From Candidatus Multivoradales bacterium (lineage in GTDB: Bacteria; Acidobacteriota; Thermoanaerobaculia; Multivoradales; JAHEKO01), in NCBI GenBank assembly GCA_965223155.1, contig CBDCVR010000015.1, forward strand, positions 320,001-384,000: a DNA stretch of 64,000 nt. The letters are read 5' to 3'. Every line of letters begins with the position of its first letter. Position 1 is the stretch's first letter. Position numbers and translations under genes: made by a program. The notes below the pieces were generated by a model, which saw only the letters and a program-made list of their open reading frames with translations, did not search any database and had not been told where the DNA came from. This document shows positions 50,834-56,045 of the stretch, in pieces.

Positions 50834-50859
50834 CGGCTGTATCTTCGAAGGAGAACGCC

Positions 50860-52322
50860 ATGAAGAAGTGGTTGGTTTGTCTAGCAGTTGCGATTCTTGC
50901 ATTCGGCGACACCGCTTGGGCTCGAGAGGACCAGATCGGCGCCCGCGGCTTCTCTCCCGAGAAGGCCTTCCAACTCGGGGAGGTTGATAACGTCAACCTC
51001 TTCAACGGTGCGCTGACGGCCACCATCCCGATCGGCCAGCAGTACCCGGTCTCGGAAGCCCTTTCGTACGGCTTCACGGTCGTCCATAGCTCGCTCGCTT
51101 GGGACCTCGAAGAAGACGTGGTGGACCTCGGCGGAGCCAACTACCTGGACGTCACGCGTCCCTTCCCTAGCCACCTCTGGAACGTCGGCATGGGCTGGTC
51201 GCTGTCTTTAGGTCTCCTCTACCCACCCCAGGATCCGACGCCGAACCCGACACTCGGACCGACAGCCGACAATCCGAACGACTCCGACCTCTGGCTCTAT
51301 GTCAGCCCGGACTCGGCCAAGCACTACCTCTACGATTCGCTCCACGACAACGACGTCGACGACGGCTCGAACGACACCAGCTACACGCGAGACAACACGT
51401 ATCTGCGCATCATCCACGACGCGAACGCCTCCACGCGCACAGTCGAATTCCCCGACGGCCAGAAGCACGTCTTCAAGCAGAGTCCGGGACTCCACTGGCG
51501 CCCCACCAGGTTCGAGGACACCAGCGGCAACCACGTCGATATTGCGTACACCGACGGTGGCTCGGCCTCGACTTGGCAGATCACAGACATGCACGGCCGC
51601 TCGCACACCTTCCAGTTTGCCCAAGAAGAAGGCCTGGCTCGCCACCAGCTTCAGTCCGCCGACCTGGCGGCCTTTGGAGGAGGTCGAGCGCTCTACAGCT
51701 TCTCGTACCAGGACGAGAGTCTTACACAGTGCTATCGACACACTGACCCTACGATCGATCCAAAGCCCTCCATGGACGTGGCTCTTCTGACCCAAATCAC
51801 GCAACCCGACGGCTCGACTTGGACGATGCTCGACGGCGGCAATCCTGCCTACGGGACCGACTGCGAAACCCCGGGCGGCCTACCCGGGGCGCTCAACCAC
51901 CTGGTCGTACCGACCGCGGGCGCGATCGACTGGACCTACGGCACCTGGAGGGTCCCGGCCGACAATCAGCCTCGCTTCGTGGGGGTTTCGGGGGTCGTCG
52001 TCAAGGCGCTGACCGACGTCGACGGCAGCCCGCTCGGAGTCTGGAAGTACCGCAACGAGCTCTTCCCGCCACAGCCCTACTGCGATCCGCCCCAGCCAGG
52101 CTGCCCGCAGTTCCCCACCGAGACGCGCACCGTCGTCGCCGCTCCCGACGATGCCTTCTGCACGATCCACTACTTTGACGCTGACCCCATCGCCGGCTTC
52201 GCCAACGGCTGGTCCATGGGTCTTCCGTTCTCCCGGCAAAACGCCCTCGAGGATCTCTTCCTGTCCAAGGAGACCTACGAAGCGGTCGGCTCGACCACGG
52301 TCCCCCCCTTTGAGGTTCCAGA
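50860..52322 (+). pseudogene. N-terminal part of a secreted RHS/YD-repeat-like protein, truncated
   Basis: AAGGAG RBS, signal peptide; VNLFNGAL, GMGWSL, SPD..KH, FPDG, D.SGN.V.I.Y, ITDMHGR, LTQITQPDG; frame runs into the IS110 element. Confidence 0.7.
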
Positions 52323-52412
52323 TGAGATGAGTCGGTCGGTCTCCAGCTGGGACACTGTGCCAGTTGGAGATAACCAAGGAATCGGCATCAGAGCCGAGAA
52401 AGGAGACCGACC

Positions 52413-53426
52413 ATGGAGTATGTTGGCATTGATGTTCACTCGAAGTACAGCGAGGTTTGCGGGATATCGGAAGAGGGGGAAGTGACGCTTCGCCGGCGGA
52501 TTCCGACTACGGAGACAGCCTTGCGCCGGTTCTTCGGTTGTCGTGAGCAGTCGCAGGTGACGCTCGAAAGCGGCCCGGTGACTCCTTGGGTGTACCGGTT
52601 GCTGTGTGAGCTGGGACACGAGGTGACGGTAGTCAACCCGCGGCGGGTGCGGCTGATCGCGGAGTCGACATTGAAGACCGACGGAATCGACGCCGAGGTG
52701 TTGGCTCGATTGAGCCGGTTGGATCTCGACCTCCTGCGTCCCGTGTACCAGCGTACGCGTGAGGCCCAGGAGCTTCGGGCCAGGCTTCGCGTACGTACGA
52801 GCCTGGTCAAAGCCAGGACATCGTTGATCAACGCGGTGCGTGGAACGTTGCGAGCTCAAGGGTACCGAGTGCCATCGTGCCCGGCCAAGAGCTTCGTCGT
52901 GCGCTACGCATCGATGGGTCTCGACAGTTCTCTTGCGGAAACGATCGATCCTCTGGTGACGACGATCGGCGAGTTGACGGATCGGATCAACCGGCTCGAG
53001 AAGGAGCTCGTAGCCGAGTCGAGCTCAAACGAGCTGTTGGTGCGGCTTCAGACGGTCCCTGGGGTGGGCCCCTTGGTGAGCTTGGCCTTCCTGGGTTGGA
53101 TGGATCGCCCGGATCGGTTCAGAAAGAGTCGAGACGTGGGTGCGTGTTTGGGCTTGAGACCGTCGCTTCGAAGCTCAGGAGGACACGAGATCCGAGGCCG
53201 GATCACACGGGAGGGCGACGCCGAGATGCGAAGGCTTCTGGTTCAAGCGGCTCATGCGGCGTTGAACTGTCGCAAAGAGTCGTCGCTCAAGAACTGGGCT
53301 GAGAGCTTGGTCGAGAGGCTCGGCAAGGGCAAGGCCGTCGTGGCCCTAGCGAGGAAGATCGCAGTGTTGCTCCATCGGCTATGGGTAACGGGCGATACTT
53401 TCCGGGCGTTCCCCCAGGCGGTGTAG
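52413..53426 (+). CDS. IS110-family DEDD recombinase/transposase
   Basis: VGIDVH, LESG, KTDGIDAE.LA, VPGVGP, GL.P..RSSGG, G.ITREGD, VALARKIA. Confidence 0.95.
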   Translation: MEYVGIDVHSKYSEVCGISEEGEVTLRRRIPTTETALRRFFGCREQSQVTLESGPVTPWVYRLLCELGHEVTVVNPRRVRLIAESTLKTDGIDAEVLARLSRLDLDLLRPVYQRTREAQELRARLRVRTSLVKARTSLINAVRGTLRAQGYRVPSCPAKSFVVRYASMGLDSSLAETIDPLVTTIGELTDRINRLEKELVAESSSNELLVRLQTVPGVGPLVSLAFLGWMDRPDRFRKSRDVGACLGLRPSLRSSGGHEIRGRITREGDAEMRRLLVQAAHAALNCRKESSLKNWAESLVERLGKGKAVVALARKIAVLLHRLWVTGDTFRAFPQAV

Positions 53427-53459
53427 AGCCTAGAGAACATCAGGTCGCACCAGAAAGGA

Positions 53460-53630
53460 AGGACGGATTGAAAGTTTCGATGACTCCGAGAAAAGGGTTG
53501 GAGGCCAGGACTCCGCGTGCCAGATGGGAGCATCGAATCCTCAACGGACGAAAAACTCACCATGCACCGGTCCAAGAAAGGACCCGCCAGAGTGCGAATA
53601 GAAGCTCGTCCTGAGGCTCCATCCGAGACC
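53460..53630 (+). ncRNA. predicted bridge RNA / seekRNA
   Basis: Two stem-internal loop-hairpin arms in the 3' non-coding end whose loop strands match the insertion flanks and element ends (see finding). Confidence 0.75.
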
Positions 53631-54674
53631 CGAAACACATGGGGAGACGATGACAGACACCTTGACCGAAACGACCGACTCATAGAACCCTTTTCGCAAG
53701 AGCTCCTATTCCTCTGTTTTCGACGGATCCCTCCCAAGAGGCCACGCCCCCTTTTCGGGGGAATACGCCTCGCCGCCCACTCCCTAGCTTCAAAGTTACT
53801 CGCTCCCGAGACGGTCGAGAGCGACCCGAAGCATCGCGTTCTGCCGCTCCAGCTCCCCCAAGCGTCTCTCTTGCTCGAGCGTGTACAGCGTCAACTCTTC
53901 GAGCTTCTCCAACAGTTTCATTTGCATTCTGGTCACATCAAGCCCCTCGCGCGCCACGTCATCCGCCGTGGGCACTCCCGGAAGGTGTTTGAAGGCCCGC
54001 ACGTAGTCATCGAGCTCGGCAAGGGGCATCAGCTCGTAGTCGGGCTCGAAGACGTAGTCCGGAACAAACTGGGTCGTCGGCGAGCACTGACTCGTGTCGC
54101 TGCAGGCAATCAGATTGCCTCGAAGCGTCAGCGTCCCCATAGCCGATAGTGCCAGCTCCGTAGCGCCCGACTTGTCTCTCGAGATCTGAAAGCCGATCGA
54201 CGGATCGTTCTCGAGCTTCCAGTCGTTGTTGGCACTAACGGTGTCCTCGATCATGAGCACGCTCTTGCCGTTGTTGGTGATCGTGACGAGCTTCTGGGTT
54301 CCCGAGCCCGTCGAGTCGACGATGTGCAGAGGCGTCTCGGGCGCGTACGTCCCGATCCCGAGGCGATTGTTCAGGACCAGGCCCCCGGCAAGCACGAGAC
54401 GACCCGCTGCGCTTGGTTCGAGGCGTAGGTCCTCAACGCCGTTACCTGCGAGGGAAAGGATGAACGCGTTCGCATTTGCCGATTGCTGCCAGGTCGTGTT
54501 CGTCGACGAATCTGTAAGAAAAATACGAGGTCGGCCGTTATTGATGATCTGAAGAAGGGTCCGTTCTCCACTTGTTGCAGACGCCTCTTCAACGGTCACC
54601 AGCGCCGACGCGTCCGTCCTCTTCACATGCACTGAGGATAAGGGCGCCTGGGTACCAAAACCGACGTTGCCACT

Positions 54675-56045
54675 GAGTTATCGTCAAATGTTGTGTACGG
54701 GTGACTCAGGCGGCGATCCGGTTCTTGGGTTCTCCATCAACGAATTTGACACCTCGGACAACGTCGGCGATTCGCTTGTAGCCCTGTAGCCGCCGCCATC
54801 GTTTCTCGGCACTCTGGCTCAGCTTGAAGACCATCGAGAGCATGGTCTCGCGGGAGAGACAACCACGGGTCTTGGCCGTTCGAAGGCGTACGGTGGCAAA
54901 GGTCGACTCGATCGGGTTCGTGGTCCTGAGATGGACCCAATGCTCGGCCGGGAAATCGTAGAAGGTCAGCAGGACCTTGCGATCCTTGGCCAGGCAACGC
55001 GTCGCCTTCGGGTACTTGGCCCCGTAGGTCGACAGGAAGGCATCGAAGGCTCGCTCGGCAGCCTCGCGCGTTTCGGCCATCCAGACCTGGTGCAGCGCCT
55101 GCTTGGCCTTTGGCTGGACGGCCTTGGGCATCTTGTTCAAGACGTTGCCGGTCTTGTGGACCCAGCAACGCTGGGTCTTGGTGTTGCTCCAGACCTGAGC
55201 CAGGGCCTTCCAGAAGCCCAGAGCGCCGTCACCGGTCGCCAGCTTCGGCTCGATGGCAAGCCCTCGCGCTTCGAGTCCACGCAAGAGCTCGAGCCAGGAA
55301 GCCTCGCTCTCGCGGTAGCCGTCTTCGACGGCGATGAGCTCCTTGGTGCCGTCCTCGGTGGCGCCAATCAGTACCAGCAGGCACAGCTTCGCGTCGTCCA
55401 GACGAGCCTTGGTATGGATCCCATCCGCCCACACGTAGACGTAGCGCTTGGAGGACAAGTCCCGGGTGCGCCAGTCGGTGTACTCCTTGGCCCAGACTTT
55501 CTTCAGACGGCTGATCGTCGCGGCTGACAACCCCGGGGCGTCGGGGCCTACCAGAGCTTCCAGGGCATCGGAGAAATCTCCGGTGGAGATGCCGCGCAGA
55601 TAGAGCCACGGCAGCAGCTCCTCGACGCTCTTGGCCCGTCTGAGATACGGAGGCGCGATCTTCGAGCGAAAGACCAACTCACCTTCACGATCCCGAACCC
55701 GAGGCACCTTCACCGGCACACCTCCGATTCCCGTCTGGATCTCACGCTCGCGCAGGTAGCCGTTGCGAACCATGCGGCGCCGGCCATCTTCCGTTTGCTC
55801 GCCTCGGTACTCGGCCAGGAAGCTCTCGACCTCGGCTTCGATCGCTTCGCGAAGCAACTCGCGTGAGCCGCGGCGAAGCACTTCGGTCAAGGCATCTCTC
55901 GAACTCTCTGATCGGTCAATCGAAACTACGTTACTCTTGCTCAAGGCGTATCTTCCTTCTTTGAGGGTTTGAATCCGATTTGGAAAACCGGACTCAGGAT
56001 ACGCCGCCTTCATCTCAACTCATACACAACTTTCGACCATAGCTC
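54675..56045 (-). mobile_element. IS256-family element with 9-bp target duplication
   Basis: 23-bp IRs with 4 mismatches (GAGTTATCGTCAAATGTTGTGTA / GAGCTATGGTCGAAAGTTGTGTA); TSD GTTGCCACT at 54666-54674 and 56046-56054. Confidence 0.93.
54706..56013 (-). CDS. IS256 (mutator-type) transposase; true start may lie downstream
   Basis: RNGY..R, VPRVRDR, WADG, GDGALG, QRCWVHK, RTTNPIES. Confidence 0.93.
   Translation of the reverse strand: MKAAYPESGFPNRIQTLKEGRYALSKSNVVSIDRSESSRDALTEVLRRGSRELLREAIEAEVESFLAEYRGEQTEDGRRRMVRNGYLREREIQTGIGGVPVKVPRVRDREGELVFRSKIAPPYLRRAKSVEELLPWLYLRGISTGDFSDALEALVGPDAPGLSAATISRLKKVWAKEYTDWRTRDLSSKRYVYVWADGIHTKARLDDAKLCLLVLIGATEDGTKELIAVEDGYRESEASWLELLRGLEARGLAIEPKLATGDGALGFWKALAQVWSNTKTQRCWVHKTGNVLNKMPKAVQPKAKQALHQVWMAETREAAERAFDAFLSTYGAKYPKATRCLAKDRKVLLTFYDFPAEHWVHLRTTNPIESTFATVRLRTAKTRGCLSRETMLSMVFKLSQSAEKRWRRLQGYKRIADVVRGVKFVDGEPKNRIAA

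Follow-up and report, generated by a model that had tools for sequence, protein, structure and literature searches.

The stretch analysed here (hereafter the window) covers 64 kb of the genome of a Candidatus Multivoradales bacterium (assembly GCA_965223155.1, contig CBDCVR010000015.1), and the analysis concerns an insertion sequence (IS) at 52322–53686 on its plus strand, together with a putative guide RNA encoded in the 3' part of that element. Coordinates are positions in the window unless a contig is named, and G000 denotes the window's own genome. The IS proper is 1365 base pairs (bp) long, with a second, 100% identical copy at G000:C13. Its sole open frame, tnp (52413–53426, plus strand), encodes a DEDD transposase of 337 amino acids (aa) and is preceded by 91 nucleotides (nt; 52322–52412) and followed by 260 nt (53427–53686) of non-coding DNA, which is the arrangement of the IS1111 subgroup. 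The repeat search recovered subterminal inverted repeats of 12 nt and 100% complementarity (pair I2, both given on the plus strand), ATGAGTCGGTCG at 52327–52338, 5 nt from the left end, and CGACCGACTCAT at 53672–53683, 3 nt from the right end, their length falling within the 7–17 bp given for IS1111 elements (Durrant 2024, PMC11208160).

The transposase matched the Pfam families PF01548 (DEDD_Tnp_IS110; 85.9 bits, 3.2e-24) and PF02371 (Transposase_20; 74.1 bits, 1.2e-20), thereby showing the N-terminal DEDD (RuvC-like) and C-terminal Transposase_20 domains of the IS110 family, and scored 244.8 bits with NCBIfam NF033542 (“IS110 family RNA-guided transposase”) against a cut-off of 140. Among structures in the Protein Data Bank its relatives were the IS621 and ISCro4 transposases only, with the alignment to IS621 confined to the C-terminal half (2.5e-10). 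The catalytic-motif positions, read from the translation aligned with ISCro4, are D7, E52, D90, D93 and S255, whose roles would be those of the corresponding residues in IS621. The motif G247-L-x-P-xxxx-S255-G256 (GLRPSLRSSG) and the length of 337 aa agree with the 330–350 aa and the GL-P----S(t)G motif reported for IS1111 transposases (Siddiquee 2024, PMC11187229). On these sequence features the element is assigned to the IS1111 type of the IS110 family.

The first arm of the putative RNA (53476–53537, plus strand), a candidate target-binding loop equivalent to the short seekRNA, is made up of an outer stem pairing TTCGATGACTCC (53476–53487) with GGAGCATCGAA (53527–53537), two guide segments and an inner hairpin. 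The 5' target guide GAAAAGGGTT (53490–53499, plus strand) is the exact reverse complement of AACCCTTTTC at 53686–53695, a match also returned by the repeat search (pair I9); as a reverse complement it reads A-AC-CCTTTTC, that is, the last base of the IS, the core and the right half of the target, and it complements the top strand of this junction. In the whole window AACCCTTTTC is found at only two places, counting the reverse complement in the loop, whereas shuffled sequences gave an expectation of 0.07 matches and none of 100 shuffles contained two. The 3' target guide GTGCCAGATG (53517–53526, plus strand) equals the top strand of the left flank, the core and the first three nt of the IS (GTGCCAG-ATG: left half with donor core, then IS), with a match of 10/10 at the second copy and 9/10 at the window copy; over the shorter comparison, GTGCCAGA (53517–53524) agrees with GTTCCAGA (52315–52322) at 7/8 positions. 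The segment matching the top strand (right half) thus lies 5' of the one matching the bottom strand (left half) and both span the core, as in IS1111-type seekRNAs, which carry two overlapping target matches with the top-strand match 5' (Siddiquee 2024, PMC11187229). Both guides fit the junctions better than the empty target, with 10/10 versus 6 contiguous positions on the left and 10/10 versus 9/10 on the right, and by analogy U53499, facing the last base of the right end, and AUG at 53524–53526 may be handshake-like positions. The first-pass annotation of the locus had already pointed to this stem, the exact 10-nt match to the right flank and the 7/8 match on the left, and direct reading of the sequence returned these and every other string it quoted at the positions it gave.

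The assembly (4.0 Mb in 15 contigs) holds two related elements, here termed type A (the window element) and type B (a sister IS), as well as fragments of the IS. Type A is present as two full copies that are 100% identical over 1364 nt and occupy different sites, and type B as 14 full copies (L003–L016, for example C14:303501-304872) with 81% DNA and 86% protein identity to type A. The flanks of type A read GGTTCC-AG | IS | AC-CCTTTTC in the window and GGTGCC-AG | IS | AG-CCTTTCC at the second copy, and those of type B read cGGTGAC-AG | IS | AG-GAT[A/G]C in 14/14 copies (GATAC in 13/14). The loop segments, GAAAAGGGTT and GTGCCAGA in type A and AAGTATCCTT and GTGACAGA in type B, exactly mirror this change of flanks, and the inner stem of arm 1 changes from GGAG/CTCC in type A to GGTG/CACC in type B. 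The ends of the two IS are identical. Specifically, identity between the types is 98.9% in the left non-coding end (52322–52412), 80.0% in the coding sequence, 100% and 90.9% in the two strands of the arm-1 outer stem, 40% in the 5' guide, 89.4% in arm 2 and 50.9% in the tail after arm 2. The contrast between the left non-coding end and the coding sequence points either to very strong constraint or to sequence exchange between the sisters. All 16 full copies, and a remnant of the IS, sit in the site named by their own target loop.

The remnant (L019), inverted and located on the minus strand at G000:C13 ~299275-299340, 57 nt past the second type A copy, is a third occupied type A site. In it, the left flank ataGGTTCC-AG is followed by ~65 nt of the left end, with a gap of 12 nt, and then without a spacer by AC-CCTTTTCgaaaacgtcaac. 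The breakpoint within the IS, GGCATC-AG (window 52386–52393), is like the left target half, and the remnant could be a deletion that arose when the element recombined at a pseudo-site within itself.

The boundaries of the IS and its core were set from empty sites. Two small contigs are almost identical to chromosome regions on C14 but contain a type B copy at the place of the empty motif there; the sides of the C11/C14 pair are 99.75% and 93.9% identical, the C7/C14 pair shows 98.87% identity across 10.4 kb, and at least 40 nt of flank are identical on each side in both pairs. Because of these identical flanks, the type B insertion can be read as GGTGAC-AG-[ATGAG...CATAGA]-AG-GATAC, with a dinucleotide core that the empty target has once and the filled site has at each junction. 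In the genome GGTGACAGGATAC occurs 17 times, and GGTGACAGAAGGATAC, which the boundaries of the first-pass annotation would predict, 0 times. For type A, 45 genomes of the family were searched with the window's left flank for the orthologous locus in its empty state, which gave only chance-size matches of 32–48 nt, and the target was read from paralogous empty sites rather than from the pre-insertion sequence at the window locus. These sites, gagGTTCC-AC-CCTTTTCgcaag and tagagGTGCC-AC-CCTTTGCgcgaaagctagt, together with the remnant, give GT[G/T]CC-AC-CCTTTTC as the type A target. The window copy (plus strand) is accordingly divided into a left target half GTTCC (52315–52319; GTGCC in the second copy and in the guide), a donor-type core AG at the left junction (52320–52321), taken from the filled/empty pairs of the sister IS, a target-type AC at the right junction (53687–53688), taken from the paralogous empty sites GTTCC-AC-CCTTTTC, and a right target half CCTTTTC (53689–53695), read from the sequence and the same empty sites. 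The core is thus AG in the donor and in the type B target and AC in the type A target, the second base differing. AG stands on the left and AC on the right at all three sites that are informative, namely in the window copy, in the remnant and in L026, the closest relative from another genome; the second type A copy has AG at both junctions.

With a dinucleotide core at empty sites, the IS proper extends over 52322–53686 and the predicted circle junction is CTCATAGA-AG-ATGAGATG. The first-pass annotation had noted an AGA shared by the two junctions; the AGA is indeed there, but at empty sites the shared core is a dinucleotide. The target given in that annotation, GTKCCAGAACCCTTTTC, carried two bases too many, since empty sites read GT[G/T]CC-AC-CCTTTTC, and its donor and circle junction CAT-AGA-TGAG two too few. 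The suggestion made there to compare the flanks of other copies was borne out, in that the second copy, the remnant and the paralogous empty sites share one target motif.

Several features of the target sites were also recorded. The type A target forms one arm of a ~68-nt palindromic unit (AGGTTCCACCCTTTTCG, ~30 nt containing CAGTAGTTGACG, then CGAAAGGGGTGGAACCT) that recurs at C14:185510-185577, C14:172054-172121, C4:9444-9510 and C13:299222-299280, and on C13 one arm holds the second type A copy and the other the remnant. The type B motif GGTGAC-AG-GATAC, of which the genome holds 17 empty copies, sits in an apparent hairpin loop with stems that vary by site (GAAATAGG...CCTATTTC, GAGACAGG...CCTGTCTTC).

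The analysis was extended to 300 genomes of the order, 48 of which contained the transposase at E <= 1e-40 (G000 included) with protein identities from 92% down to about 35%, and 30 loci were read for guides and junctions. Ends were detected automatically except in L031, where they were set by hand; in the scoring of guides against junctions the anchors of L030, L032, L051 and L053 were redone, L053 was excluded and L048 has an unreliable right end. A separate search of the genome contigs for related loci returned five distant ones (25–54% identity), which were not used. The closest foreign relative (L026, 92% identity) carries the guide TAAGTGGGTT beside the flank A-AC-CCACTTG (guide as reverse complement AACCCACTTAT, right junction AACCCACTTGT). 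Other relatives are likewise retargeted, as shown by AAGACGCCCCAG, which in L036 is both the reverse complement of the guide and the right junction (12/12 match), and by AAGGGGTTAG; the corresponding pairs of reverse-complemented guide and right junction are AAGGTTACTC and AAGGCTACTC in L027, AAGGGGTTAGT and AAGGGGTTAGG in L044, and ACGACGTCACA and AAGACGTCACA in L047. On the left side, the guides GTGCCAG, GTGACAG, GTAGAG and AACGAG accompany identical flanks. AG stands 5' of the left end in all 26 relative rows in which that end was located and 3' of the right end in 25/30. Across 28 distinct guide/junction pairs the best 10-nt match averaged 7.86 for cognate and 5.58 for non-cognate pairs, and none of 5000 permutations reached the observed sum, a figure that overstates independence because related elements share both guide and site. 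The guide segments therefore change with the target both within the genome and across relatives, a covariation for which the first-pass annotation had proposed to look.

The second arm (53546–53611, plus strand), a candidate donor-binding loop, consists of an outer stem GGACGA (53546–53551)/TCGTCC (53606–53611), an inner stem and a hairpin. Folded alone, the 146 nt at 53470–53615 give both arms with a minimum free energy of -48.0 kcal/mol (z -2.11; 9/200 shuffles as good). For covariation, an alignment of 12 RNA regions was reduced to nine elements by dropping L034, L035 and L053, which were misaligned on the 5' side, and RNAalifold predicted both arms from the plain, unguided MAFFT alignment of these nine. 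In this alignment 96.8% of stem cells are paired and two-sided changes occur in 9 of 31 pairs, with 0/500 shuffles as good; when partners were slid by 1 to 3 columns, pairing was at most 51.3% with at most two two-sided pairs. Five of the two-sided pairs belong to the arm-1 outer stem, two to the arm-1 inner hairpin and two to the arm-2 hairpin, which gives the fold proposed by the first-pass annotation support from covariation. Alternatively, the 3' strand of arm 2 might pair with GGACGG upstream of arm 1 to form a multiloop, a fold described for many IS1111 elements (Durrant 2024, PMC11208160).

In the loop of arm 2, the 5' donor guide core CTCA (53556–53559, plus strand) complements TGAG of the left end, and the 3' donor guide ATAGAAG (53598–53604, plus strand) equals the last five nt of the IS followed by the donor core AG. 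The stem, CTCA and ATAGA (53598–53602) had been reported in the first-pass annotation and are all present; the five positions of its right-end match become seven because the core is corrected to AG. The 3' donor segment equals right end plus core exactly (7/7) in 24 of the 30 rows, 17 with ATAGAAG and seven with ATGGAAG, and no row combines ATAGAAG in the guide with ATGGAAG at the end, or vice versa. On the other side, CTCA accompanies TGAG in 11 rows and CCCA or CCCC accompanies TGGG in 16, so that 27/27 are concordant. The second loop thus complements both ends of the IS around the core and covaries with them, the 5' match being short and the events few.

Two relatives are unusual around this arm. 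In L028 (G092:C4:803436-807443), an 81%-identical relative with four copies in its genome, arm 1 is intact and unrelated DNA begins after the start of arm 2, so these copies may be without donor arm and right end. In L043 (G260:C7) the right junction reads CTCATAGA-GA-TGGGCC..., like a right end abutting a left-end-like ATGGG and not like a normal target.

A junction promoter is also predicted. TTGACC, a -35-like hexamer at 53662–53667 (plus strand), lies 17 nt before the GA at the end of the IS, and a weak -10, GAAGAT, would form only across the circle junction, from the terminal GA and AG-AT. The relatives displayed have TTGAC equally far from the end, and the pair would agree with the junction promoters described for the family. 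In the integrated element the terminator scan gave one terminator-like site, on the minus strand, which is within expectation.

Taken together, these data suggest that 52322–53686 is very probably an intact, recently active IS1111-type IS whose 3' region encodes a two-arm guide RNA (seekRNA/bridge RNA), as the first-pass annotation had proposed and as the retargeting of the sister IS, the loops of relatives, the covariation of stems and the change of donor segments with the ends now support. The anatomy, the target motif, the empty sites and the covariation of loops with targets and ends and of stem partners with each other are direct observations; that the RNA is made, is bound by the transposase and guides a circular intermediate, and that the element is active at present, would follow from what is published for the family. 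In such a mechanism, the 5' segment of arm 1 would pair with the top strand of the right target half (core and CCTTTTC) and its 3' segment with the bottom strand of the left half (GTGCC and core), while in arm 2 the 3' segment (AUAGAAG) would read the right end with the core and the 5' segment (CUCA and neighbours) the left end. Strand exchange by the 337-aa DEDD/Ser transposase would follow at the shared core, AG in the donor and AC in the target, and would insert the IS into GT[G/T]CC-AC-CCTTTTC with AG to its left and AC to its right.

A number of observations weigh against this interpretation, and some of them would favour other explanations. The guide fits are imperfect: no full type A copy fits its guides perfectly, the window copy having GTTCC for GTGCC and the second copy matching at 8/10 on the right, and among relatives L029, L030, L042, L045 and L046 fit their guide poorly (6/10), with L048, whose right end is unreliable, at 4/10. 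Folded in full, the 260-nt 3' region is no more stable than shuffled sequence (z -0.75; 45/200 shuffles as good), and Rfam 15 gave no match in 52000–54000, with nothing better than E = 5. Both would fit an explanation in which the matches between the 3' region and the flanks are chance, or DNA-level repeats with no role as RNA. This explanation is scarcely credible, since shuffling predicts only 0.07 occurrences of the 10-mer across the window, both guide segments of arm 1 follow the flanks in the sister IS as well as in relatives, and the stems carry compensatory changes.

Further points concern arm 2. Its 5' donor guide is weak alone, with four contiguous nt, or 6/8 when neighbours are included; the covarying donor positions amount to two columns, which may reflect one or two events each; and the donor-arm stems are mostly invariant, with no two-sided pairs in helices 3 to 5, so that the structure of the outer and middle helices rests on conservation. 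Such a pattern would suit a short seekRNA in which only arm 1 guides, arm 2 serving in processing, as a scaffold or as part of a precursor, and the protein reading the ends through the subterminal repeats. For ISEc11, a short RNA of 82 nt sufficed for movement and the role of the long form was left open (Siddiquee 2024, PMC11187229). Guidance by arm 1 alone nevertheless appears unlikely here: the 7/7 match to right end and core in most rows, with A/G changes coupled in guide and end, and the full concordance of CTCA/TGAG and CCCA/TGGG speak against it, arm 2 is far better conserved between sisters with identical ends (89.4%) than the adjoining tail (50.9%), and loops complementary to the donor as well as to the target are described for IS1111 elements (Durrant 2024, PMC11208160).

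The remaining points bear on expression and activity. A promoter scan of the integrated element found 0 sigma-70-like sites, no circle junction or excision product was present in the contigs aligned to 52100–53900, and no RNA run is on record for this organism. The element might be a fossil, with an RNA module intact in sequence but an IS that no longer moves in this organism; there are just two full copies and one remnant of type A, the joint is absent from the contigs, and several target-like sites are still unoccupied, including a perfect GTGCCAGCCTTTTC on C15. We regard this as quite improbable, because the two copies, although at different sites, share 100% identity across 1364 nt, tnp is uninterrupted and retains its catalytic motifs, and the sister IS shows filled/empty polymorphism between near-identical contigs.

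Known elements provide a close framework for the proposed guide RNA. In ISEc11, ISPa11 and ISKpn4 the RNA derives from the 3' non-coding region and has short (70–100 nt) and long (145–170 nt) forms, ISXne4 is an example of natural retargeting, and targets lie in repeated, foldable sequences (Siddiquee 2024, PMC11187229); for 93% of the IS1111 elements in ISfinder a bridge RNA is predicted in the right end (Durrant 2024, PMC11208160). As far as these elements are described in the parts of the seekRNA paper drawn on here, the window element resembles ISEc11, ISPa11, ISKpn4 and ISXne4 in transposase size and motif, in its subterminal repeats, in the long non-coding region downstream of tnp and in a single stem-loop with two target matches, the top-strand one 5', that overlap at the insertion point. 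Its targets are likewise repeated, partly palindromic motifs, and its close relatives are naturally retargeted, as with ISEc11 and ISXne4. It differs from the four in having its own target motif and ends and in being known from sequence alone, and from the seekRNA elements covered in the same parts of that paper in sharing its genome with a retargeted sister whose ends and donor arm are identical, and in a core that differs at the second base between donor and target (AG versus AC).

With IS621, as presented in the portions of the two bridge RNA papers used here (PMC11208160, PMC11208158), the element would share one RNA with two internal loops, each with two guides for opposite strands to the left and right of a 2-nt core, core-adjacent positions that fit the partner DNA after exchange in a handshake-like manner, and a -35 box in one end with the -10 gained at the circle junction. 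In contrast to IS621, which has its RNA in the left end, 5' of the gene, the element has it in the right end and thus 3' of tnp; the order of strands in the loop is reversed, the 5' guide of IS621 reading the left bottom strand and its 3' guide the right top strand; the core is AG/AC and not CT; and the subterminal repeats are long. The IS621-type arrangement is thus absent, as expected for the IS1111 type, and every sequence-level feature of that type that was looked for is present. This class of system has been published since 2024, and the element adds a natural example, of which a close relative may already be in ISfinder or in the supplements of the 2024 papers.

At the left end of the IS, the stretch 52334–52344, adjoining the left subterminal repeat, forms an 11-nt perfect inverted repeat with GGAGACCGACC at 52402–52412, which includes the likely ribosome-binding site directly before the ATG at 52413. 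Relatives retain the pairing through two-sided changes, for example L027 (GGTCGGTTTCC/GGAAACCGACC) and L039 (GGCCAACCTCC/GGAGGTTGGCC), and the repeat may control translation of the transposase. Outside the element, the possibly interrupted frame on its left (50845–52320) and the minus-strand open reading frame at 53799–54632 gave no Pfam family. A 1372-bp element at 54671–56045 encodes a Mutator-family (IS256-like) transposase on the minus strand (54706–56013; PF00872, 1.8e-65) and is found at 99.9–100% identity in at least four other places (C7, C11, C13 and C14). Its copy at C7 (11411–12782) interrupts a type B IS, another copy lies 463 bp past the second type A copy, and the one at 54671–56045 lies 985 bp past the window copy of type A.

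The two sister IS may tentatively be viewed as a natural orthogonal pair. Since their ends are identical, their left ends 98.9% and their donor arms 89.4% identical, the sister RNAs and transposases (86% identical) should be able to act on each other's elements. That every full copy and the remnant nevertheless sits in the site of its own loop would imply either that the guide acts in cis or that excision needs flanks fitting the element's own loop. Together with the better fit of the guides to the junctions, the core mismatch and the one-sided AG/AC outcome, it could also mean that strand exchange in IS1111-type elements follows a defined order or takes place at a defined position. If true, this would bear on the order of strand exchange in the subgroup, which the portions of the 2024 papers drawn on here do not work out.

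RNA-guided IS110/IS1111 recombinases are in development as tools for genome insertion without double-strand breaks, and every well-documented natural system brings a further compact recombinase (here of 337 aa) with its RNA scaffold (~140 nt), for which core and target are known. The element represents no new kind of system. What this genome offers is a sister pair whose donor modules are identical and whose target loops differ, together with numerous occupied and empty sites, filled/empty pairs among them; relatives at graded distances show which RNA positions can vary and which are fixed, providing a ready data set for the pairing rules of IS1111 elements, a subgroup structurally less characterised than IS621.

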